64,000 nt of DNA. It comes from a virus. The notes under the pieces were generated by a model that was given only the letters and a program-made list of their open reading frames with translations, was not told the origin of the DNA and did not search any database. Position numbers and translations under genes: made by a program. Position 1 is the stretch's first letter. Each line of letters opens with the position of its first letter. Of the stretch, positions 39,431-51,003 are shown one piece after another. The DNA lies in IMG/VR virus record IMGVR_UViG_3300037358_000003, positions 37,773 through 101,772 of that record. One strand, 5' to 3'.

Positions 39431-40037
39431 GGCTCAAAAATATGTCTCGTCCTTGTTGCATACTGCGTTCGCCCATTGCGTACACTTCATCCATTGGCGC
39501 CATGCCGCGACCAACGTGTAGGTGTTCAATGCGCGCGTCATGGCAAAACGACCAGCGTTCGTGAAACTTTGCGGTTGATCGAATTTCGTCGTCAACGTGG
39601 GAGTGGACGTAGGATTCGCAGGCAAGTTTGCCGGGTTCGTCAATGACACCGAACTTCTCAATATAGGATCGGTTCACAACGAAATGAACGCCAGCCATGT
39701 TGTAGCCGTCATTTAGAGCGATCACCCCACTACCATCTGGCAACTGATGCATGGCAATCATTGCAGATTCAAACCAACCGGGCATGAATGCGATGTCATC
39801 GGCACCCGTCATCACGAATTGTTCTGTGCTCTCGTCTACGCCCCTGTTAATCCTGACAGGCCACGTACCCCCACCATCATCAATGATCGTCACAGGGAGG
39901 GTTCTAGCTACCTCTGCGCACTCGCCAGTAGCGACGATGATGATGCGGTAGTCCGACGTTGATTTCTGTATGCTCTGGACGACTGGTGCTAGACGGTGCG
40001 GGCGCATTGCGGGAATAATCACGGCCACAGTTGCCAC
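39405..40037 (-). CDS. glycosyltransferase family 2-like
   Basis: VAVIIPAMRP, INRG, GADD. Confidence 0.8.
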   Translation of the reverse strand: MATVAVIIPAMRPHRLAPVVQSIQKSTSDYRIIIVATGECAEVARTLPVTIIDDGGGTWPVRINRGVDESTEQFVMTGADDIAFMPGWFESAMIAMHQLPDGSGVIALNDGYNMAGVHFVVNRSYIEKFGVIDEPGKLACESYVHSHVDDEIRSTAKFHERWSFCHDARIEHLHVGRGMAPMDEVYAMGERSMQQGRDIFLSRAHLWSTN

Positions 40038-40039
40038 AT

Positions 40040-40504
40040 CTACCCCGCTTTGTACGTACCGTCGTCCTGCTCAAGTGCTTCGGCCTTCTTACGATCCCTG
40101 CGCCGTTTTTCTTTATCACACTTACATTGTTTGCAATACCGCCAACCGTTTGCATACTGTCCATCGTATGGTCCGTGTCCGTGTGGGCACTCCGTCTTGT
40201 CTACGTTGGGATTTGACCTTCGTATATTGCATGGGGCGCAAGATGGTACGAGATTGTCTGGGTGGTTATTGATCTTGTCAAAGTCAAGATGATCTGCTAC
40301 TAAATCAGTACCCCAAGTAACTGAAGTCTCACAGTGATAACACGGGTGTGTTCCTGGTCCTATCGCATCATACAAAATAACGCGATGCTGATAGGCAAAT
40401 CCTCGCAGCGTGGCTACAGGGTGGCCGTGCGCCTTGACCTGAACATATCCAGAATCCTTCTTGATTGTTCCTTCGCCACGTTTGCGTGTGTGCTTGGTTC
40501 CCAT
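40040..40504 (-). CDS. HNH endonuclease
   Basis: YQHR, ADHLDFDKINNHPDNLVPSCAPCN. Confidence 0.88.
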   Translation of the reverse strand: MGTKHTRKRGEGTIKKDSGYVQVKAHGHPVATLRGFAYQHRVILYDAIGPGTHPCYHCETSVTWGTDLVADHLDFDKINNHPDNLVPSCAPCNIRRSNPNVDKTECPHGHGPYDGQYANGWRYCKQCKCDKEKRRRDRKKAEALEQDDGTYKAG

Positions 40505-40521
40505 GTGCCCTATTCTACAAC

Positions 40522-40812
40522 CTATTCAGCACGGTAAGTGCCGTCATCTTGCTCAATATAGATGCAAGCGCCTGGGCAATTTTCAGCAGCTTCCGCTACA
40601 GCATCCGCAAGATCGTCAGTGAAGTATGCGAGTCCTGATGCACCCTTGAGTTTCGGAGCACCGTTGGCATCTCTACCGTCATCAGAGTCATCCCAATTCT
40701 TGACGTAATATAATCCGTCGTCATGCGACATGAACACGGCGGGTGCGATTTCCTCGCACAATCCATCACCCGTACACAAATCTTGATCAATATAGACTCT
40801 GGTTCGCGTCAC
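40522..40812 (-). CDS. actinobacterial-type ferredoxin
   Basis: IDQDLCTGDGLCEEIAPAVF...AAENCPGACI. Confidence 0.88.
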   Translation of the reverse strand: MTRTRVYIDQDLCTGDGLCEEIAPAVFMSHDDGLYYVKNWDDSDDGRDANGAPKLKGASGLAYFTDDLADAVAEAAENCPGACIYIEQDDGTYRAE

Positions 40813-41339
40813 TGGTCACCCTTGAACCACCCAAATTGCACGGCAGTTCTCCGCCGATGATCATTAGCACAACGAACATCGCACTTTTCGATCTCAGTCA
40901 TAATAGCGTCCCATCGCCAACTACCTAAAATGCCAGAAATCTTCGCACGTTTGTTAGACGGATCTCTGTGGTCAAATTCTAAAACGATTATGTCGGATTC
41001 TCCACAATCCACACATGGGTGATCATTTAGATAGTCGATGAGATGTTGACGATTTTTCGTGTACCGTCGCGCTGCGCATTTGCGATTGTCTTCGTTGCAT
41101 TTTTCACCATTGGCAACACACCAGCAATGGTGATTACAAAACCTAGTGTCATTTCTTCTGTCCGATAAGTCTGCACCGCAGGCGATACATGCATGATCAT
41201 CCGGCGGTGTGTTTCTCTTATGTTTTGACAGATACAAATTGCATTCAGCACACCTCGTGGTAACCGTGTCTATAGTACCGTCTGATTCAATGACGATACT
41301 AACGCGCGTAGAGCCACACCGCTTGCACGGTTTTCTCAT
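40809..41339 (-). CDS. HNH endonuclease
   Basis: PCVDCGE.D..VLEFDHRD...EIEKCDVRCANDHRRRT; start at ATG after SD GGAG. Confidence 0.85.
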   Translation of the reverse strand: MRKPCKRCGSTRVSIVIESDGTIDTVTTRCAECNLYLSKHKRNTPPDDHACIACGADLSDRRNDTRFCNHHCWCVANGEKCNEDNRKCAARRYTKNRQHLIDYLNDHPCVDCGESDIIVLEFDHRDPSNKRAKISGILGSWRWDAIMTEIEKCDVRCANDHRRRTAVQFGWFKGDQ

Positions 41340-41556
41340 TTGTTGCTCCAGTCTTGTTCCCTGGAGAGGGTGGGACCGCGGAGGAACAAGCTCCGCAGCC
41401 CCAGATTTCATAGACGCCTTGTTCGCGTCAGACTTTGAACCCGTTATCCCTCAGCCAATCACGCCACGCATGCCATGCGACGATCCCGCCCGCAAGGGCG
41501 AGAAGGCCGACGATGGCAAACGGGGCGAGCATAACGTCAAAGATGCTCATCGAGCA

Positions 41557-41879
41557 CTACGGCGTAACAGTGAAAACGTCAGCCGCAGCGGCGCCGGGAG
41601 TAACCGTGATGTTGACGGCAGCCGGTGAGAATGGCGTAACGCCATCAGGCTCCAGGGTCGGAGTACCGTCAGCATTGGTCACGGTAGCGGACGCATTGAA
41701 CGTACCAGCCAGAACTTCAGTGATCTTGCCAGTAGTAGCGTCAACTGTAGCGACGGCAGCGTTGTCCGATGCGTAAGCAACGGTCGCCCCATCGGGGGCA
41801 ACAGCAACATCGCCCTTGTCGTCAACGAATGAAAGTGAAAGTGTGGCCGTAGTGCTATCTACGGAAATGGATGATGCCA
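41557..41879 (-). CDS. Ig-like (Big_2-type) virion protein
   Basis: YASDNAAVATVDATTGKIT; SD AAGGAG before ATG 41879 (ORF stays in frame to 42102). Confidence 0.7.
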
Positions 41880-42341
41880 TATTGGCTCCTTGTAAAGTTA
41901 GAAGTGCGTGTGTCGCGATGGTGTGGGGTGGGTGCGGGATATGATGTTCTGTCCACCATTTACAGAATCTGGTTATCTCCCTGTCAAGTTCATCTACAAC
42001 CCCTTGTTGAACTGACTCGTCTAGGTGTTCGATGCGGTCCGTAATCTCGTCAACGCGGTTATGAACCCAGTTGACAATTGAATCACGATGTCGATCGTCC
42101 ACTACACACGCTTAACAAGAAACACGATCAGCAGAACGATGACCACGAGAACTAGAATTCCCCACAGCATCAGTGCGCCACCACTTGATGAGCGACCCAA
42201 ACAAACTGGAAAATCAGTCCGCTAGTAAGTAGCGCAAGTCCGAGCGGCAAGAGCCATGCCTTAGCTGCACCGAGTGCGATTGAAAGGAAACTAATCGCTG
42301 CCATGATGCAGAGAATGAGTGCGAGTATGTTCACGTTGCTC

Positions 42342-42689
42342 CTAAAGTTGAGGCGGGCTGGAACAATTGCCTTTGCTCAGACAACCTTCAATCCAAACTG
42401 CGAATTCTGCAAGTGTTGCGTCTGCTGCGGACAGTCCATCAATCACTTTGGCCACCTGTTGTTCTAGCGCGACCTCGTTGTTCAGTGCGGTTGAATGCTG
42501 ATGGAGTAGGGGGACAATTTCGTCATCCTTAGCAATGATTGTGTGCTGTAGTTGCGTACTAGTGTGGTGATAAATCGTCGTTTGCGCTACGTTGCCGATG
42601 AGACTAAAGAGCGCAATGATGGCCGCTATGCCGACGTAGAATTGCCTGCGTCGGTCCTTCCGAGACTCGCCTTCTGGACGCGGACTCAT
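42342..42689 (-). CDS. membrane protein (lysis-cassette-like)
   Basis: One TM followed by a helical region. Confidence 0.6.
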   Translation of the reverse strand: MSPRPEGESRKDRRRQFYVGIAAIIALFSLIGNVAQTTIYHHTSTQLQHTIIAKDDEIVPLLHQHSTALNNEVALEQQVAKVIDGLSAADATLAEFAVWIEGCLSKGNCSSPPQL

Positions 42690-43129
42690 GAGTGCTCCAT
42701 GCGTTCGTCGCGTTCTTGTACGCGTTTACGTTCCTCAACTTGCTTATCAACTTCAATTCCCACAGCCTCGGCCTGTCGTTCCATGATACCGCGAAGATTG
42801 TGACCGCCATTTCCGTCTGGCTTGATTTCCCGAAGCACCTCATTCAACATTCGTGTTGTCTGGTTTTGACCTTTGGTTAAGATATCAAGTGTTTTATCGA
42901 CTTTCGTGGTCCAGCCCTGCCTAGCCGGAGTACCCGTACGTGGATCACGATCAATATCAAAGAAAAACTCAGTTAATGTACGCTGATCAAATTCCGTGTT
43001 ACGGGCTTTGAGTTGACGCGTGCGGACCAACCCCATCACGGCTTTGCCGATTCCGAGAATGGCTGCGCCAATGACGGCTGCTGCGACATAGATGAGTAGG
43101 GTTTCAGTCCCTGCTGAAATAGCGAACAC
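42686..43129 (-). CDS. membrane protein (lysis-cassette-like)
   Basis: N-terminal TM; EIKPDGNGGHNLR motif resembling actinophage lysis-associated membrane proteins. Confidence 0.6.
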   Translation of the reverse strand: MFAISAGTETLLIYVAAAVIGAAILGIGKAVMGLVRTRQLKARNTEFDQRTLTEFFFDIDRDPRTGTPARQGWTTKVDKTLDILTKGQNQTTRMLNEVLREIKPDGNGGHNLRGIMERQAEAVGIEVDKQVEERKRVQERDERMEHS

Positions 43130-43185
43130 ATCTACCTATCCTGATTCATTTCGGTGCCGCCCTGTTGGAGTAATTTGATATTCAG

Positions 43186-43812
43186 TCAGATGGTGACAAG
43201 TTCCCCGACGCGCAATTCGTCACGCCAGGGGGTTGGTACGACCTGCTCAACTATTTCAGTCAAGCCTTTTTTCCTGATTAAAATGCAAGCACCGGAAACA
43301 TACTCATCGTTGATACACTTCTTGACCGTTTCCCATACGCGGTACGGACTCAATCGCGACCCAGGTGTATCGTCTGGATAATCTTTGATCCTCATGGGAG
43401 TTTCGACTCGACCTGGAGCAATTGCAAACGCTTCGATTTGTCCCTCGTGTGCCAGTGATTGCGTCAATGATATGACGCCAGCTTTGCTTGCCGAGTATGC
43501 AGCATGATTTGGCTTGCCATGTAGACCAGCAACACTGGCGATAAAGATCAGTTTCTCCACGCCCGCCCAAATGGACGCCTGCGCCACATTGAACGCTCCC
43601 AGGAGATTAGTGGTTATCTCCTCCTCAAACGACGCACGCTCAACTGGGCCAGGATGAGAAACACCCGCGGTCAGTATGACCGTTGTAGGGTTATACACGT
43701 CCAGTGTTTCGGCTACGGCGGTAAGACTACGAACGTCGCATTCTTCATGCGTGACCTTGATCCCTGCAAAGGGCTTGCTCATGCCACCAGCGCCGAGTGT
43801 CAGTATCGTCAC
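43186..43812 (-). CDS. short-chain dehydrogenase/reductase
   Basis: TAG, NLLG, IAS, YSASK, PGRVET. Confidence 0.88.
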   Translation of the reverse strand: MTILTLGAGGMSKPFAGIKVTHEECDVRSLTAVAETLDVYNPTTVILTAGVSHPGPVERASFEEEITTNLLGAFNVAQASIWAGVEKLIFIASVAGLHGKPNHAAYSASKAGVISLTQSLAHEGQIEAFAIAPGRVETPMRIKDYPDDTPGSRLSPYRVWETVKKCINDEYVSGACILIRKKGLTEIVEQVVPTPWRDELRVGELVTI

Positions 43813-44510
43813 AGTTCTCTCGCCACCTCGACCGCCATCTCAAACAGCTGGAGTTCAGAAGGGGTACCGAGCATGGCGCTCGGAGCGTCGTAAGTGATGA
43901 ACTCGCTACCGGACTCAATCATTTTCGCAATGACCGACGAGACGTAGTATTCACCATTGCAGCGAATATCGTTCACAAGAACTTTGACAGCGTGCTCAAC
44001 GAAGTCAGTGCCGCTGCGAAAAAAGTAGATACCCGTCATCGCTTCTGACGAGATCACAGATTTTTCGGCTATCTCTTGCACGATGCGATTGTCCGTCACC
44101 ACGTAGCTGTGATGATCCTTGGACGAACGGAAGGTTACAAACACTCCATCAAATCCATCGGCAGCGTCGATGAAATCATTCACGTCAAGCGCTGCTAGTT
44201 GATCCGCATTTCCGATGAGTAAAGGTTCATCTGTGATCAACGACTCCACGCGCAGGATCGTGTCAACTGCACCTTGAGTCGGTTCGTCCAGGTGATATGC
44301 AATGTCATTGCTTGTGAGGAGCGGCCACACGTCTTCATTGGCTAGTCGTGACACAACAATCACTCTGTGTTCTTGCGCCGGACGCAAGTTGTTGATGACC
44401 CTAGACAGCATGGGCTGACCGCACACGTCTACGAGCGGTTTGGGAAGTTCGTAGCCTGCTTCAGCGAAGCGCGTTCCTAGTCCTGCGGCGGGCACAACAA
44501 CGTTTAGCAC
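43809..44510 (-). CDS. sugar-phosphate nucleotidyltransferase
   Basis: VPAAGLGTRF...PKPL, EK..IS, GIYFF, NGEYYV, LGTP. Confidence 0.88.
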   Translation of the reverse strand: MLNVVVPAAGLGTRFAEAGYELPKPLVDVCGQPMLSRVINNLRPAQEHRVIVVSRLANEDVWPLLTSNDIAYHLDEPTQGAVDTILRVESLITDEPLLIGNADQLAALDVNDFIDAADGFDGVFVTFRSSKDHHSYVVTDNRIVQEIAEKSVISSEAMTGIYFFRSGTDFVEHAVKVLVNDIRCNGEYYVSSVIAKMIESGSEFITYDAPSAMLGTPSELQLFEMAVEVAREL

Positions 44511-45188
44511 TTACACCCTCGCCATGTTTATTTTGCGAATGTATTCTTCTGAATAATGCGAGTCGTGCGAATAGTGTGTACCTTGCAGACTGTCCGTAAC
44601 GGAGTAGTCAAGCGCCTCTAGACAGATTCCTGCGACCCGTTCCAATCCGCAATGCTCAAACGCATCGTAAATCTGCGTGTCGTAATAACCAATCGCTAGC
44701 AGGCGGTCTATGACCGAGCGTTGCGCAAACATCGCTGGGCCAAGAATGCCATGATACGAAGTTGGGAACGGTATGCCCATGCGGTGTAGTTGTTGATTGC
44801 CCCACACGCTGAGGTGAACCGAGTTTCGATCCCAGCCCCAATCGTGTTCGCTATTGCTCCAGTGACGAATGGTGGTGAGTGGTTGCGATTCTAGGTGGTC
44901 AAGATTCGCAGTAACGATCAGGCTGTCAAAGATGAGTGCGTAGTGTTCGGCGTTCGGGAACCCACGAACAGCGAACGCAAATGCTCCGTGTGCATATCCA
45001 TGATTGCCAATGTCAGCAACGATGCAACCGCGGTCACGGCACCATTTCAGGTAGCTCTTGTCGTCACTATCGCTATCGACTACGACAATCGGTGGATTGT
45101 CATGATGATGCTGAATGGCGGTTACTGCCTCGTAAATGACTGGGCGGGACTTGTCAAACTTGCAGGGGATCACGAACAACATATTCAC
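44511..45188 (-). CDS. glycosyltransferase-like protein
   Basis: FVIPC, VVVDSDS, GLER. Confidence 0.65.
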   Translation of the reverse strand: MNMLFVIPCKFDKSRPVIYEAVTAIQHHHDNPPIVVVDSDSDDKSYLKWCRDRGCIVADIGNHGYAHGAFAFAVRGFPNAEHYALIFDSLIVTANLDHLESQPLTTIRHWSNSEHDWGWDRNSVHLSVWGNQQLHRMGIPFPTSYHGILGPAMFAQRSVIDRLLAIGYYDTQIYDAFEHCGLERVAGICLEALDYSVTDSLQGTHYSHDSHYSEEYIRKINMARV

Positions 45189-45386
45189 CGCCGCAACTGA
45201 GGCAAACGTGTATTTCCTTGCAAAACCATCGACCGTCAGTTATCTGAACATTGGCCCAAACGTGATACATCTCCACCATCGGTTCAGCACACTTAATGCA
45301 GGTTGCTTGGCGATAGGTAATGGGTGAGTGCGATGCTTCAGGTTCCCATTTCTCGATAAGACGCACGATCTCAGAATACGGAATGC

Positions 45387-45956
45387 TTATGGTTTCGCTG
45401 GCCACAATCCCACCACTCTAGCGTTGTCCGGCACAAACGATTGCGGCAAGACGATTGCGCCAGCGCCAATGGTGACGCCGTTGCCGATCTTGACTCGATC
45501 GCAAATCGTCGCGTTCGCACCGATCAAACAATCGCTACCGATCTCAACATCGCCAGCAATGACAGCACCTGGACACACGGTAGTGAAGTCACTAATCGTG
45601 CAGCGCGTCATGCTCACGGCGTAATTGATATGAACGTCTCGACCGAGCGTTACGGAATGCAACAACACGGTGCCGGGTGCGATGACGCAGCCGGGTCCAG
45701 CAGTAACCGACGCGCCACAAATGGCCGATGGGTCGATCAGTGCCGACGCTCCCTCTAGTATGCACATCTCAGCGATTCGTCTGCGTTCAGATGGCTTGTT
45801 GATACCGATGATGACAGTACCAGTCCACGGCATCGCTTGACTGATATTGGCATCATAGAGTGCAAGTTCTTCGTCGGGATGAACGCGCTGCCAAATTGAT
45901 AAAATATCTTTTCCGTGAGATCCTGCGGCGCAAAGTAAGTTTGTCACGTATGCCAA
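45387..45956 (-). CDS. hexapeptide-repeat sugar acetyltransferase (PglD/NeuD-like)
   Basis: Left-handed beta-helix repeats IG..C.IGANA.I. Confidence 0.88.
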   Translation of the reverse strand: MAYVTNLLCAAGSHGKDILSIWQRVHPDEELALYDANISQAMPWTGTVIIGINKPSERRRIAEMCILEGASALIDPSAICGASVTAGPGCVIAPGTVLLHSVTLGRDVHINYAVSMTRCTISDFTTVCPGAVIAGDVEIGSDCLIGANATICDRVKIGNGVTIGAGAIVLPQSFVPDNARVVGLWPAKP

Positions 45957-46600
45957 CCTTGTGCGCGATTATTGCCGATGTGAAGCACTCTCGGATCGTC
46001 GTTAATGTTGCCAAATATTCCGAAGTGGAAATTGTAGAAGTTCAGCGTGTCGGTGATGCCACGCTCTAGTCCGTCACCGGGTTCGGCCAGACACAACTGT
46101 GTTACGTCAATTGGCACAAGCATCGGGTTAAACGTGAACAAGCGATGCGTGCTGACATAACCATCACGCTGTGTGTACTCATCGGCATACTGCTGCATGT
46201 AACCACCGACCGCAGATTCCTCAGCGTTAACCGGCTGACGGTAAAGTGCGATCTGCGCGAGCAGTGGGTCGTTGTCGAGAATACCAACCATGTCGTGCAG
46301 TGGAATCTCGCATTGAGCGACCATATCGCCCTCCCAGTGCAGCACGTAGTCTGCGTTCATGTCCCACGCGGTTTCCCACGCCGACCTGACTGCGCCAGCT
46401 AGACCTCTGCGGGTTTCGTGGTGAACTTGCTTGTCAAACTGCGGGTACTGCACGCGCATTTGTTCCGCGTAATGGGGATCGCCGGAATCGTTTATTAGCA
46501 CCATTTCGTCAATGAGAAAAACGTGTTTCTCTAGTGAGGCGACAGCGTGGCGGAGGTAGTCTGGTCTGCCGTCATCCAGTACAACGCACACAATGCTCAT
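45944..46600 (-). CDS. glycosyltransferase
   Basis: GRPDYL, INDSGD, DYVLHWEGD, FTFNP. Confidence 0.82.
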   Translation of the reverse strand: MSIVCVVLDDGRPDYLRHAVASLEKHVFLIDEMVLINDSGDPHYAEQMRVQYPQFDKQVHHETRRGLAGAVRSAWETAWDMNADYVLHWEGDMVAQCEIPLHDMVGILDNDPLLAQIALYRQPVNAEESAVGGYMQQYADEYTQRDGYVSTHRLFTFNPMLVPIDVTQLCLAEPGDGLERGITDTLNFYNFHFGIFGNINDDPRVLHIGNNRAQGWHT

Positions 46601-47271
46601 CTGTTGCCCCAGATCGCGTTCATGGTCGCCACGTTTTGTCCAGCATACATCCAACGCTCAGGGCCGCTTACCGACTCATAGTGAACGATGGTTGATTCGG
46701 CCACATATTTGCAAACGTAGCCAGCCTCATTGACGGACATGCACAACGCACAATCTTCGTAACCATTGCGAAAGGATAAATCAAATCCACCAACAGCGTT
46801 GAACACACTCCGACGAATCACAAGGCAAGCCCCAGTAACGCCGTCAACAATACGTGTCGGCAACTCCTGCTTGATTTCCTCACCGCCAGCGGAACCGTTG
46901 CCGTGCCACAATCGCACCCCGCTAGTTTGCAAATCTCCCGCTGGGTGAACGATGCGAGGCCCGGCGATTGCAACTTGTGGATCATCAAATGCGGCGATCA
47001 GTGGTGGTAGCCAATTAGGTTGTGGAATCGTGTCTTGATTAAGGAAACAGATCAGGTCTGCGTGAGATAAAGACGCACCTTCGTTGGACGCAGCACCGAA
47101 GCCGAGATTAGTGGTGTTACGAACAACTGCATCAGCAGCCACATCCCAGTCTTCGCCATTGAGCACTAGGATTATTTCTATGCCCTCTGTGTTTGCGTGT
47201 AGGGCGCCCAAACACTCATCTAGGTACTTCCTGTCACCGTAACAGGGGATGACCACAGATGCATGCATCAC
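46597..47271 (-). CDS. glycosyltransferase family 2
   Basis: SVVIP, NLGFG.A.N.G, FLNQD, GACL, GGFD, YED. Confidence 0.92.
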   Translation of the reverse strand: MMHASVVIPCYGDRKYLDECLGALHANTEGIEIILVLNGEDWDVAADAVVRNTTNLGFGAASNEGASLSHADLICFLNQDTIPQPNWLPPLIAAFDDPQVAIAGPRIVHPAGDLQTSGVRLWHGNGSAGGEEIKQELPTRIVDGVTGACLVIRRSVFNAVGGFDLSFRNGYEDCALCMSVNEAGYVCKYVAESTIVHYESVSGPERWMYAGQNVATMNAIWGNR

Positions 47272-47984
47272 GGATGCAACACTAGCCGACTCGGAATCGG
47301 ATCGTGCACGGTCGGCACGTTAATGAGTTCGCCCCATTCTTTGCGTAATTGCTCATCTTCAAAATCTCTAAGCCGCTGGTAATGTGCAACATCACCACGC
47401 GCACGATCAGCGTCAGACAGCGCACCGAGCCACAAATCGCGCTTGGCGACATAATGCGAAAAGTCCCGGTACTGCCACTCCCGAATCGCCAGCACGCCAC
47501 CAACACCACCTGAAATACTCACGTCGTGTTGACCCATAGTCAGTAGCGCAGTGGGATTCCATCTGTAGCAAGTTTTGTGCCAAAATTTTGGAGCGATAAC
47601 GCGCGTGTTCCAGTTGTGATGCACGAATGCCTGAAGATACAATTTGTTGTGCGGACAGTCTGCCAACGCTTCAACAACAGTGCGACCGTCTAGTGAGTAC
47701 AGAAACTCGTCGGCGTCGAAGGGTGCGATCCACTCCGCGCCATCAATGCCTGCGTGAGTAGCGAGTCCATTCATCACTGCCGCTTGATGGAATATGGGAT
47801 TGGCGTCGTGCCGCACGTCCAACTGCCCAGTCTCCGCAGCCAGCGTTTCAACGATCTGTGCGGTGCCATCAGTAGACGGCCCAACGCTCACGTAGATGCG
47901 ATCTAGTCCCTCGCAAAGGTGGTGGCGCAACACGGTTTCAATTATTTGCGCCTCATCCCTACACGCAATAATGCCCGCAATCAC
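47268..47984 (-). CDS. glycosyltransferase family 2-like
   Basis: RDEAQII..HHL, STDGT, W..FDADEF. Confidence 0.85.
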   Translation of the reverse strand: MIAGIIACRDEAQIIETVLRHHLCEGLDRIYVSVGPSTDGTAQIVETLAAETGQLDVRHDANPIFHQAAVMNGLATHAGIDGAEWIAPFDADEFLYSLDGRTVVEALADCPHNKLYLQAFVHHNWNTRVIAPKFWHKTCYRWNPTALLTMGQHDVSISGGVGGVLAIREWQYRDFSHYVAKRDLWLGALSDADRARGDVAHYQRLRDFEDEQLRKEWGELINVPTVHDPIPSRLVLHP

Positions 47985-48154
47985 GCACGCAACTCCCGCA
48001 AGTGACGCTCACACAATCCGAGTTCGTTGGCAACGGGCGAGTAGCAGCGGGTCGGCTCACCATACCAACATTGAGTGCTCGGCATGACCCACGCGTTATT
48101 GCAAGCGGGTGCGGCGATAGGAAGACCGTAGGGGCGGTCAATGATTGCAACCAT
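47981..48154 (-). CDS. small Cys/His protein (57 aa)
   Basis: TAATG coupling to the Pup-like gene; QCW..C..PV.N.LGLC.RHL shared with the ORF at 17521-17688. Confidence 0.6.
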   Translation of the reverse strand: MVAIIDRPYGLPIAAPACNNAWVMPSTQCWYGEPTRCYSPVANELGLCERHLRELRA

Positions 48155-48300
48155 TACTCTCCACCCCTTTCATCATCCAACACTGCGTCGATCTCGTCAA
48201 TGAGTGAATCGAACTTGGCTCGGAGCTTGGCGGCGTCTACGTGGTTCGGTTTCTTCGCAGCGGCATCATCACGCTGTTGCTTGCGGGTTTGATGTTCCAT
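48154..48300 (-). CDS. pup: Pup-like (prokaryotic ubiquitin-like) protein, 48 aa
   Basis: MEHQTRKQQRDDAAAKKPNHVDAAKLRAKFDSLIDEIDAVLDDERGGE*; Pup helix motif D.L.DEID.VL plus C-terminal GGE; SD-like GGGGGGA upstream. Confidence 0.78.
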   Translation of the reverse strand: MEHQTRKQQRDDAAAKKPNHVDAAKLRAKFDSLIDEIDAVLDDERGGE

Positions 48301-48740
48301 ATCGTCCCCCCGAATGTGGACGCCTTCTCCACAAAACCAACGCTCAGCATTTGGAAATGCGGAGCGAGGATGGCACCGACATCAGCGGAACTGCCCCTCG
48401 TGTGTCCCAAATGCGGACCACAAGGAGAAATGAACGTGACGCTTAACTCGATACCTGGAGGTTGAATCCAGGCACGTCGATCACGCTGCCCATCGGTGGG
48501 GTCTGAATGGTGAGCACTAGATCATCGCTGGTCCATTCCTGAATTCCCCGGCCACAAGATGTGGGGGTGGGTGCGTTAGGTGAAGAGTCCCTAAATCTTT
48601 TGAACAGGTTCATTTTTTACCTCTATTCACTTGACACGCTCGGAATGAGCGCATAATGGATACTTGGATTATATCGTACTTGACAATTTGCTAAAGCGGG
48701 TGTGCTCTACTTATGGTGGAGAAGATACGTTCTCATGCGG

Positions 48741-49604
48741 CTAGGCTTTCGCAACCCATCCAGACCACGCACCGTTTGCTGGCTGCGTATTGACCATGAG
48801 CGATTCGTTGGATGCGCCCTGCTCGCACTCGACCACAAGCTCGCTAGCTTCGTTGACGTAGAGGATCGGGTTGCCAACGAAACCGCCAGCAAGCGGCAAT
48901 CCTTCGCTGCCCCACGGAGCGCCAGGAGTCTGGGCTTGGTAGAAGTGCCAGATCAGCCCACTTGCGTTGCGCTGGATTTGGTGGTTGGTAGCGTTGAAGC
49001 TCACCAGTTCGGTGATCATAGTGTCCTCCTGGGAGCATGGGCGTGGGTATTGGCCGAAGTCGGATTTCAGTAATAGGTCAAGGTCTGTGTCGGGTAGCGG
49101 TGGCGTGTGCGTGGACTGCTGGATATGTGAGCCAGACCACGTGGTTGCGTTGCCGGGGAAGCTGGTGGACTCGGATTGCCAGTGGAATGCGGTCAGTCCC
49201 TCGCTCGCTAGCAACTCACTCAGTGCGCCTTCGCCGTAGTCGCCATTTGTTGCGGCGGGGCGCACTGATGCGATGCCCTGGAAGTAGGGGACTGCTGTGG
49301 ATGGTGTGGGTAGGTCTTCGTCTGCGGCGAAATAAACGGGCTGTGATATAGGGAGTGAGAGTGCGGTAAGTGCTGCGTTTGCCTGTTGTGCGTGGGATGC
49401 GCCACCGCTGTAACCGCTGGACGTGTCGGTGGCTACGTCTTCAAAGACGAACCATACGTTGATGCCGCGCGATGTGAGATCAGCAAGCTCTGACGCGCTG
49501 ATCGCTTTGCCAGCGCCGGTTAAGTAGCGACCGACTGCGGTAACGCCAGCTGTGTTGAGTTGGGTGCCCGTATAGCGGGCGTCGGAGTAGTCGATTGCGG
49601 TCAC
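48741..49604 (-). CDS. DUF1906 (Rv2525c-like) glycoside hydrolase, candidate endolysin
   Basis: AIDYS, VGRYL..K.I...E, FVFE, PVYFAAD, WQS, D.D...DFGQ. Confidence 0.85.
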   Translation of the reverse strand: MTAIDYSDARYTGTQLNTAGVTAVGRYLTGAGKAISASELADLTSRGINVWFVFEDVATDTSSGYSGGASHAQQANAALTALSLPISQPVYFAADEDLPTPSTAVPYFQGIASVRPAATNGDYGEGALSELLASEGLTAFHWQSESTSFPGNATTWSGSHIQQSTHTPPLPDTDLDLLLKSDFGQYPRPCSQEDTMITELVSFNATNHQIQRNASGLIWHFYQAQTPGAPWGSEGLPLAGGFVGNPILYVNEASELVVECEQGASNESLMVNTQPANGAWSGWVAKA

Positions 49605-50138: not shown

Positions 50139-50480
50139 TTAGGAAGTAGAATGGACGCCTTGGATTTCGACCATGTAGGACGGAGATCCGGTCGAGACAA
50201 CCTGAACAATGGCACCGAATTGGAGCGCAGCGCGTGCATTCGTAGAGCTACCGGCTGCGGCTGCGGTGACGTAACATTCGCCACCAGTGCTAGTGGTGCC
50301 GTTTGTAGTTGGAACCGGGCACGATCCGCCTTGATGGCTGACGGTCCAGAATAGTGGAGCGCTTCCTGAGATGTTCGTGACCTTGACCGCGAAACCAGCG
50401 GCAGAGAGGACCACAAGGTCAGCACCAACGGATGCTGACGATGCAACGTATGCGACGTGACCGCCGTTGTATGATGCCAT
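50139..50480 (-). CDS. hypothetical virion protein
   Basis: Beta-rich ORF with SD in the late operon. Confidence 0.6.
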   Translation of the reverse strand: MASYNGGHVAYVASSASVGADLVVLSAAGFAVKVTNISGSAPLFWTVSHQGGSCPVPTTNGTTSTGGECYVTAAAAGSSTNARAALQFGAIVQVVSTGSPSYMVEIQGVHSTS

Positions 50481-50487
50481 GTGGCTC

Positions 50488-51003
50488 CTAAGTGACTGTG
50501 AGCGATACCGCAGGCGTTAGGCCGGAGCACGCGTTCTGATTGATGGACGTATTGGCGGGCATGACGATGAATATCTCGCCATAAGTGAGGGCTGAGCCTG
50601 GCGCCATTGAACGTGGTAGCGGAACCCCGCCATCTCCCCAGGTTGTGGAAAACCAAATGGCGAGACAGGAGTCGACGTACTGACCGCTCGTTGTATCTAG
50701 CACTCCGCCTGCCTGGTCTGTTGTGATCGCTGCCGTTTCAGTGTTGAGCGTGATCGCTGAGTTCGTATTGTTGGTGACGGTAAAGTCGATCGTTTGCGTA
50801 GCGTTGTTGCCGGGTGCGAGTGATGGGCCGGTGGCGGGTTGTAGCACGACGCTGAAGCCTGCGTTGCCGACAGTGAATGATCCGGTGCCCGTGTTGGCTA
50901 TGAAGTATGCGGCGGCGACACCTGCGAAAAGTAGAGGCGCTGCAATGAGTGGGAATAGCCAGCGGCGGACGTGGTGGGTGCGTGCTGGTGCTGCGTGCTT
51001 CAT
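50488..51003 (-). CDS. secreted protein with signal peptide ending A-Y-F (SipW/TasA-like)
   Basis: Basic N-terminus, hydrophobic core, AAAYF; L.PG...F.VTN. Confidence 0.6.
   Translation of the reverse strand: MKHAAPARTHHVRRWLFPLIAAPLLFAGVAAAYFIANTGTGSFTVGNAGFSVVLQPATGPSLAPGNNATQTIDFTVTNNTNSAITLNTETAAITTDQAGGVLDTTSGQYVDSCLAIWFSTTWGDGGVPLPRSMAPGSALTYGEIFIVMPANTSINQNACSGLTPAVSLTVT

Follow-up and report, generated by a model that had tools for sequence, protein, structure and literature searches.

Why would a phage carry a short gene resembling the one for the ubiquitin-like protein Pup, and does its product tag proteins or block the host system that reads the tag? The gene lies in a stretch of 64,000 nucleotides (the window), comprising bases 37773-101772 of a virus genome record that is 101,772 bp long, carries direct terminal repeats and has a G+C content of 53.6%. 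That the gene is phage-borne, as the first-pass annotation had assumed from the window's sequence, agrees with these terminal repeats and with the presence of genes for a tape measure protein, an endolysin-like protein and HNH nucleases. We refer to the predicted product as mini-Pup, and divide its coding sequence as follows.

48154..48300, minus strand: the complete mini-Pup coding sequence, supported by the Pfam Pup model, an HMM of cellular Pups, and pN/pS against the pup gene of metagenome contig L031
48241..48300, minus strand: residues 1-20, a basic N-terminal segment (QTRKQQRDD...KKPNH), defined by alignments; AF2 pLDDT about 71-72
48169..48240, minus strand: residues 21-44, a single amphipathic helix, VDAAKLRAKFDSLIDEIDAVLDDE, defined by profile alignment to Pup chains in the PDB
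48157..48168, minus strand: residues 45-48, RGGE, a conjugation-type C-terminus, supported by codon alignment with the L031 pup and by an independent contig

The open reading frame (ORF) runs on the minus strand from 48300 down to 48154, and consists of an ATG start, 48 codons and a TAA stop (48154..48156). Its complete reading is MEHQTRKQQRDDAAAKKPNHVDAAKLRAKFDSLIDEIDAVLDDERGGE-stop, and its C-terminal stretch is ...LIDEIDAVLDDERGGE-stop (also given as ...KFDSLIDEIDAVLDDERGGE-stop). A Shine-Dalgarno-like GGGGGGA (six G and an A, 48311..48305, minus strand) is located 4 nt 5′ of the ATG, and the 27 in-frame codons upstream contain no alternative ATG, GTG or TTG start. The TAA overlaps the ATG of a 57-codon ORF (47981..48154) as TAATG, and all neighbouring genes are on the same strand as mini-Pup. 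The 48-residue frame, its Shine-Dalgarno-like sequence, the TAATG coupling and the GGE ending had all been pointed out in the first-pass annotation and can be read directly from the sequence; the strand, which had been left unstated, is minus. Among the 3022 stop-to-stop frames of at least 20 aa in the 101,772-bp genome, mini-Pup is the only one that ends in GGE, and one other ends in GGQ. A 151-nt permafrost metagenome contig from a different study is identical to 48118..48268 and so agrees on the RGGE-stop; neither this stop nor the deletion junction described below is therefore peculiar to one assembly.

Across the 48 codons shared with the L031 pup, a codon alignment yields pN 0.17 and pS 0.91 (synonymous sites saturated); the protein has therefore been under purifying selection throughout a long divergence. 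Judged by these features, the ORF is a genuine gene that selection has maintained, and it encodes a shortened Pup homologue. In the surrounding DNA, we found no Rfam RNA family in 47900..48800, no 13-mer of the 460-bp region upstream of mini-Pup that recurs elsewhere in the genome, and nothing above expectation in a scan for consensus promoters and terminators. A peat metatranscriptome (X8) contains two short pieces identical to the phage (47014-47149 and 50375-50500), neither of which is on the mini-Pup ORF. The former falls in a GT2 glycosyltransferase gene, and the latter covers the end of a 113-codon ORF (50139..50480) and the start of a 171-codon ORF (50488..51003). These pieces hint at phage activity in peat, with DNA carry-over as a possible source.

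The relationship to Pup, which the first-pass annotation had proposed, is borne out by profile searches. The Pfam Pup model (PF05639) matches mini-Pup with 21.7 bits (E 3.9e-4), aligning residues 4-43 to positions 9-54 of the 69-position profile. This score is below the curated cut-off of 27 bits, and the TIGR03687 score of 14.1 is below its cut-off of 41.45, because the C-terminal helix is missing; a full-length sister protein, P0004, reaches 67.9 and 57.6 bits with the two models. An HMM for which only cellular Pups were used (52, from actinobacterial genomes and metagenomes) assigns mini-Pup 28.4 bits, while the best of 2000 shuffles reached 14.7. A profile made from mini-Pup and its six nearest relatives matches the Pup chains of structures with Mpa (3M91, 3M9D), the Mpa-proteasome (7PX9), Dop (7OY3) and PafA (4BJR) at 6e-11 to 1e-6. 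When 1.8 billion representatives were searched exhaustively with phmmer, seven proteins matched mini-Pup. The closest full-length match is P0004 (65 aa), which is 67% identical over residues 2-44 and which, by its scores with both models and its C-terminus YVQKGGE, is a textbook Pup.

Other searches returned little. Among GenBank phages, neither a megablast of 8 kb nor a tblastn of the mini-Pup ORF gave a match, and a tblastn of a cellular Pup (from locus L038) gave none either, probably due to low-complexity masking. IMG/VR scans with two alignments (A1 and A2), the endolysin-like protein and a membrane-protein alignment (A3) found no relative. In scans of genomes and metagenomes, the 48-aa query produced nothing at the tblastn threshold, and a 65-aa query produced matches.

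A small acidic helical peptide might resemble Pup by chance, and the scores under the Pfam and TIGR03687 cut-offs would fit this explanation, as would a PDB search with the single mini-Pup sequence, which returned no match. However, the 67% identity to a bona fide Pup extends over 43 residues and includes the variable N-terminal part, and in the trees described below mini-Pup is nested inside a Pup clade. Together with the HMM scores, the PDB profile matches and the pN/pS values, these results rule out a chance likeness, to which we assign next to no probability. By these sequence comparisons, mini-Pup shares common descent with cellular Pup. The earlier term 'Pup mimic' thus holds in that the protein is related to Pup, but not in the sense of mimicry by convergence, since mini-Pup is a homologue derived from the full-length pup of its own lineage (see below).

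The two modes in which Pup is bound help to interpret what mini-Pup has kept and lost. Pup is disordered; on Mpa/ARC, its residues 21-51 form a single long helix that lies antiparallel in the N-terminal coiled coil, and the disordered N-terminus is threaded into the pore (PMC8755798). When bound to PafA and Dop, Pup forms two short helices, orthogonal to each other, that occupy a groove, and its C-terminal Glu is placed in the active site (PMC8223512). Residues 1-20 of mini-Pup are the counterpart of the disordered threading segment, and are about 5-7 residues shorter than in full-length relatives. Residues 21-44 correspond to about residues 27-50 of M. tuberculosis Pup, the helix with which Pup enters the Mpa coiled coil, and all residues equivalent to 27-50 are present. 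This helix includes helix 1 of the PafA/Dop-bound form: FDSLIDEIDAVLDDE aligns to TDDLLDEIDDVLEEN, and the D-L-L-D-E-I-D-x-V-L helix motif is present. AF2 predicts a single helix at 23-45 with pLDDT 92-95, and L26, F30, L33, I37, V40 and L41 form a hydrophobic seam along it. Relative to P0004, the ten residues AEAFVKSYVQ (A51-Q60 of M. tuberculosis Pup) are deleted in frame, with the junction between 48168 and 48169, and [K/R]GGE is retained. The second helix (A-E-x-F-V-x-x-Y-V-Q), which provides the two-helix fit to the PafA/Dop groove, is absent from mini-Pup, in line with what had been noticed at first pass.

Mini-Pup is therefore homologous to cellular Pup (Actinomycetota; PF05639, TIGR03687; M. 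tuberculosis Rv2111c) over the N-terminal segment and the central helix. Common to both are the D-x-L-[IL]-D-E-I-D-x-V-L motif, a G-G-E end, one long helix by prediction and an N-terminus of low confidence. However, cellular Pups are 62-67 aa long, whereas mini-Pup has 48 aa, no helix 2 and a shorter N-terminal segment, and it has an Arg where cellular Pup has a Lys before GGE. Unlike cellular Pup, it is also phage-encoded, has no dop, pafA, arc or prcBA nearby, and falls under both family cut-offs.

One reading of the retained parts is that mini-Pup inhibits the pupylation enzymes: helix 1, together with GGE in this copy, might sit in the groove or the active site of PafA or Dop without being turned over productively. 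Helix 1 (DSLIDEIDAVL) is complete and part of the PafA/Dop interface, and the GGE end could reach the active site. Yet the loss of half the binding surface should lower affinity for these enzymes, while the Mpa-binding surface is complete. We thus regard such inhibition as quite unlikely, and take the same view of its possible outcomes, less tagging (through PafA) or less untagging (through Dop).

We then considered where the gene came from, for which its surroundings are informative. The following features flank mini-Pup.

48741..49604, minus strand: Rv2525c-like glycoside hydrolase, endolysin-like, upstream of mini-Pup (PF08924, E 1.1e-16; PHROG endolysin, E 5.7e-16)
47981..48154, minus strand: 57-codon Cys-rich ORF, whose ATG overlaps the mini-Pup stop
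43186..47984, minus strand: sugar-modification cassette, downstream of mini-Pup, assigned by Pfam

The mini-Pup locus is not linked to dop, pafA, arc/mpa or prcBA; the neighbours are the endolysin-like gene and glycosyltransferases, and neither PF03136 (PafA/Dop) nor PF00227 (proteasome) has a match in the whole phage genome. L031, the 1846-bp NCBI metagenome contig that carries the P0004 gene, is not a dop-pup-prcBA locus either. Downstream of its pup and one small ORF are four segments that are collinear with the window from about 43135 down to 41338, with protein identities to the window phage of 56%, 38%, 49% and 90%. L031 is therefore a fragment of a related phage with a full-length, GGE-ended pup. 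As far as this comparison shows, mini-Pup descends from such a full-length, ligation-ready (GGE) pup of its phage lineage.

The two phages differ around the gene. Roughly 5 kb, made up of the 57-codon ORF and the sugar cassette (three GT2 glycosyltransferases, a hexapeptide acyltransferase, an unassigned gene, a nucleotidyltransferase and an SDR/epimerase), separates mini-Pup from a membrane-protein gene, whereas the cassette is absent between pup and the membrane-protein gene of L031 (L031:362-1018). The cassette is thus an insertion/deletion polymorphism between relatives. At the site of the 57-codon ORF, L031 has an unrelated 63-codon ORF. The 57-aa protein has no family in Pfam, PHROGs or ESM Atlas. 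The analysis also gave a weak Pfam 'Pepco' match (E 0.075), which proved uninformative; we found no paper pairing Pepco with Pup. An ORF fragment upstream of pup in L031 does not match the endolysin of the window phage, and the gene order 'endolysin then pup' was seen solely in the window phage and in Streptomyces phage Dagobah.

Just 5′ of mini-Pup is a 218-bp stretch (48376-48593), overlapping a 56-codon minus-strand ORF (48443..48613), that contigs from two other peat runs match with 0-1 differences. The flanks in those contigs are unlike those in the phage, with loose ends at 48376 and 48593, and one of the two contigs also has an inverted copy of 48570-48593. The stretch, which has no Rfam family and is single-copy in the genome, may represent a module that is shared or mobile.

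There is precedent for a lone phage pup, since GenBank annotates gp36 of Dagobah (QMP84414.1) as 'ubiquitin-like protein Pup'. This 78-aa protein ends in FVQVGGE and is encoded directly after the endolysin; the Dagobah genome paper does not mention it. Dagobah gp36, P0004 and mini-Pup are alike in being encoded by a lone phage pup without Pup enzymes and in ending in GGE. In contrast to mini-Pup, however, P0004 and gp36 have kept both helices and are recognized by the Pup models (67.9 and 47.8 bits). PafA could ligate them as they are, which is not to be assumed for mini-Pup.

Several other Pup sequences came up in these searches. MT835496.1 ('UNVERIFIED: Bacteriophage sp.', human faeces) was rejected as a source of a phage Pup, with ARC-, Dop- and PafA-like ORFs found around its pup. 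Positions 39633-47716 (locus L003) constitute a high-GC, actinobacterial-type pupylation locus, in which a 1021-aa ORF that resembles ARC/Mpa at its start and Dop at its end, and whose garbled middle suggests frameshifts, is followed by pup (63 aa, GGQ) and then by a 467-aa gene of the Dop/PafA family; the record probably represents bacterial DNA or a scaffold that contains a prophage. Two contigs of about 65% G+C (L032:1130-1321 and L033:584-775) encode a 63-aa Pup ending in YVQAGGE that is not in a dop/prcBA locus, next to an HNH-like ORF, a small zinc-ribbon ORF and other short ORFs. This is probably another mobile-element- or phage-borne Pup. In two further homologues, P0008 (91 aa) and P0025 (83 aa), the frame runs past GGQ into a shared extension beginning AVRVI. 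If real, it would require proteolytic processing before ligation, as in ubiquitin precursors, but it could be an artefact of gene calling or of a stop codon. P0019 and P0020 (65 aa) end in K-G-D-Q rather than K-G-G-Q, and belong to a large group of short-contig Pups, of cell or phage origin, with the signature EHEAAAMVSSFVQKG...

A profile search of a 5.8-billion-protein collection for further short Pups revealed four more, all metagenomic and unannotated: P0033 (46 aa), P0003 (46 aa), P0006 (47 aa) and P0032 (48 aa). They share with mini-Pup the N-terminal shortening, the helix and a K-L-R-x-[KQ]-F-D signature, where full-length forms have K-L-K-x-D-L-D. Unlike mini-Pup with its RGGE, they stop directly after the helix, in ...L-x-x-E (in one case ...L-G-T-N-E), without GG. 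RGGE is thus found only in the window's copy, although the final residue is Glu in all five short forms, and the Mpa/ARC-binding helix is kept whole in every one of them. With 16.7-23.4 bits, all five are under the Pfam cut-off and have no precomputed Pfam domain; being below curated Pup thresholds, mini-Pups are missed by routine annotation. The five short forms group into a single clade in maximum-likelihood trees (support 100/94 with 61 sequences and 99/97 with 16 sequences), and this clade is nested within full-length forms, among them the phage-borne P0004. Mini-Pup is the first branch of this clade, and the other four group together with 88/84 support. On these trees, the simplest history would start from a full-length phage Pup that lost helix 2 while keeping GGE (the form of mini-Pup), with GGE lost afterwards; two independent truncations are a possible alternative. 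What is new here is this helix-2-less mini-Pup clade, with the window's copy as its GGE-retaining early branch.

Such shortening could also be taken as progressive decay. Mini-Pup has deletions at both ends compared with full-length relatives, and its own relatives are truncated further, as might be expected if it were a functionless remnant of the phage's pup gene. A remnant would not be expected, however, to have an intact frame with a Shine-Dalgarno-like sequence and translational coupling, to show a pN of 0.17 at saturated synonymous sites, or to be accompanied by relatives such that five diverged sequences keep an open frame of 46-48 aa and the hydrophobic seam of the helix. We therefore consider decay very unlikely.

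If the protein is functional, host PafA might ligate it via its C-terminal Glu to lysines, and mini-Pup would then be a working miniature tag that redirects or jams host pupylation, either as a shorter tag that still recruits Mpa or as one that marks proteins without efficient threading. The intact GGE end is of the type that requires no deamidation by Dop (PMC8223512), and the conserved final Glu of all five short forms also fits. Work on an engineered short Pup is relevant in this regard (bioRxiv 10.1101/2024.09.06.611731). It found that ligation does not require the N-terminal half of Pup, and that K61R retains PafA activity while abolishing poly-pupylation, so the Arg of mini-Pup at this position is compatible with PafA. 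The engineered sPup used for proximity tagging (the C-terminal 28 residues, in a K61R variant) resembles mini-Pup in being shortened, in having Arg at position 61 and in ending in GGE. However, sPup drops the N-terminal half, keeps both helices and is still used by PafA, whereas mini-Pup keeps the N-terminal half and helix 1 and drops helix 2. The 28 residues, both helices included, are the shortest PafA substrate reported in that study, and the PafA/Dop groove takes Pup as two orthogonal helices, which speaks against ligation of a protein lacking the second. In addition, four of the five short proteins have no GG, so the shared function of the clade cannot depend on GGE. Ligation of mini-Pup is thus, in our judgement, unlikely.

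Any function of this kind presupposes a suitable host. The phage encodes a WhiB protein (63.1 bits) and an Rpf-type transglycosylase (30.7 bits), two families that, among 14 control genomes, both match only in Corynebacterium glutamicum. It also encodes the Rv2525c-like hydrolase. An actinobacterial host is well supported by these three genes, and by this gene content the host is very probably an actinobacterium. From this we infer that it has a Pup-proteasome system, as the first-pass annotation had implied, with Mpa/ARC. The phage's DNA is present in peat metagenomes of several studies. The cellular Pups nearest the phage clade are from small-genome actinobacterial MAGs (55-57% G+C) and from Acidimicrobiia, and a full ARC gene was found in all five of the MAGs checked among those with such Pups.

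The reading that we favour, tentatively and at not quite even chances, is that mini-Pup is a non-conjugated decoy for the host unfoldase Mpa/ARC that would damp Pup-dependent degradation. It is favoured because the Mpa helix is complete, half of the PafA/Dop interface is gone, the phage encodes no Pup enzymes and the sister proteins lack GGE. Free Pup is known to bind Mpa without being degraded (PMC3769308). In the proposed mechanism, mini-Pup would be made during infection and stay unconjugated, and its helix would dock on the N-terminal coiled coils of the host Mpa/ARC ring, where it would compete with pupylated proteins for recruitment. Proteasomal degradation that depends on Pup, for example of phage proteins pupylated by the host, would thereby be damped. 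The RGGE tail would be the leftover of an intermediate step, already gone in sister lineages. Two observations count against this scheme: a pure decoy would have no use for the RGGE that the window's copy retains, and helix 1 is also in the PafA/Dop interface, such that those enzymes could be the target instead of Mpa. Between decoy and tag, both of which had been envisaged for this gene from the start, we lean to the decoy on comparative grounds, as the pattern of four GGE-less sisters favours a protein that only binds over one that is conjugated. Overall, the sequence evidence suggests that mini-Pup is probably a block on the protein-degradation system of the host, not a protein tag. Extended to the whole lineage, the idea would be that phages captured a host degradation tag and reduced it to its unfoldase-binding helix, giving rise to a family of non-conjugatable anti-Mpa/ARC decoys; this wider scenario is conceivable, though in our view less likely than not.

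We found no papers on phage-encoded Pup in the literature searched. A 2026 review describes lysine depletion in actinophage proteins as a 'compelling but experimentally untested' adaptation to pupylation (PMC13696103). A lone full-length phage pup leaves the direction of its effect ambiguous, since it could mean more tagging or interference. A clade that drops the ligase-binding helix, and then GGE, while conserving the unfoldase-binding helix, points to interference. This clade also supplies a peptide of 46-48 residues that is directly testable as a natural ligand of Mpa/ARC. If the interpretation as an anti-Mpa/ARC decoy is true, the window's copy, with no helix 2 but GGE present, would be an evolutionary intermediate, these proteins would be the first inhibitors of the bacterial Pup-proteasome system from viruses, and pupylation and proteasomal degradation would be processes that restrict phages in Actinobacteria.
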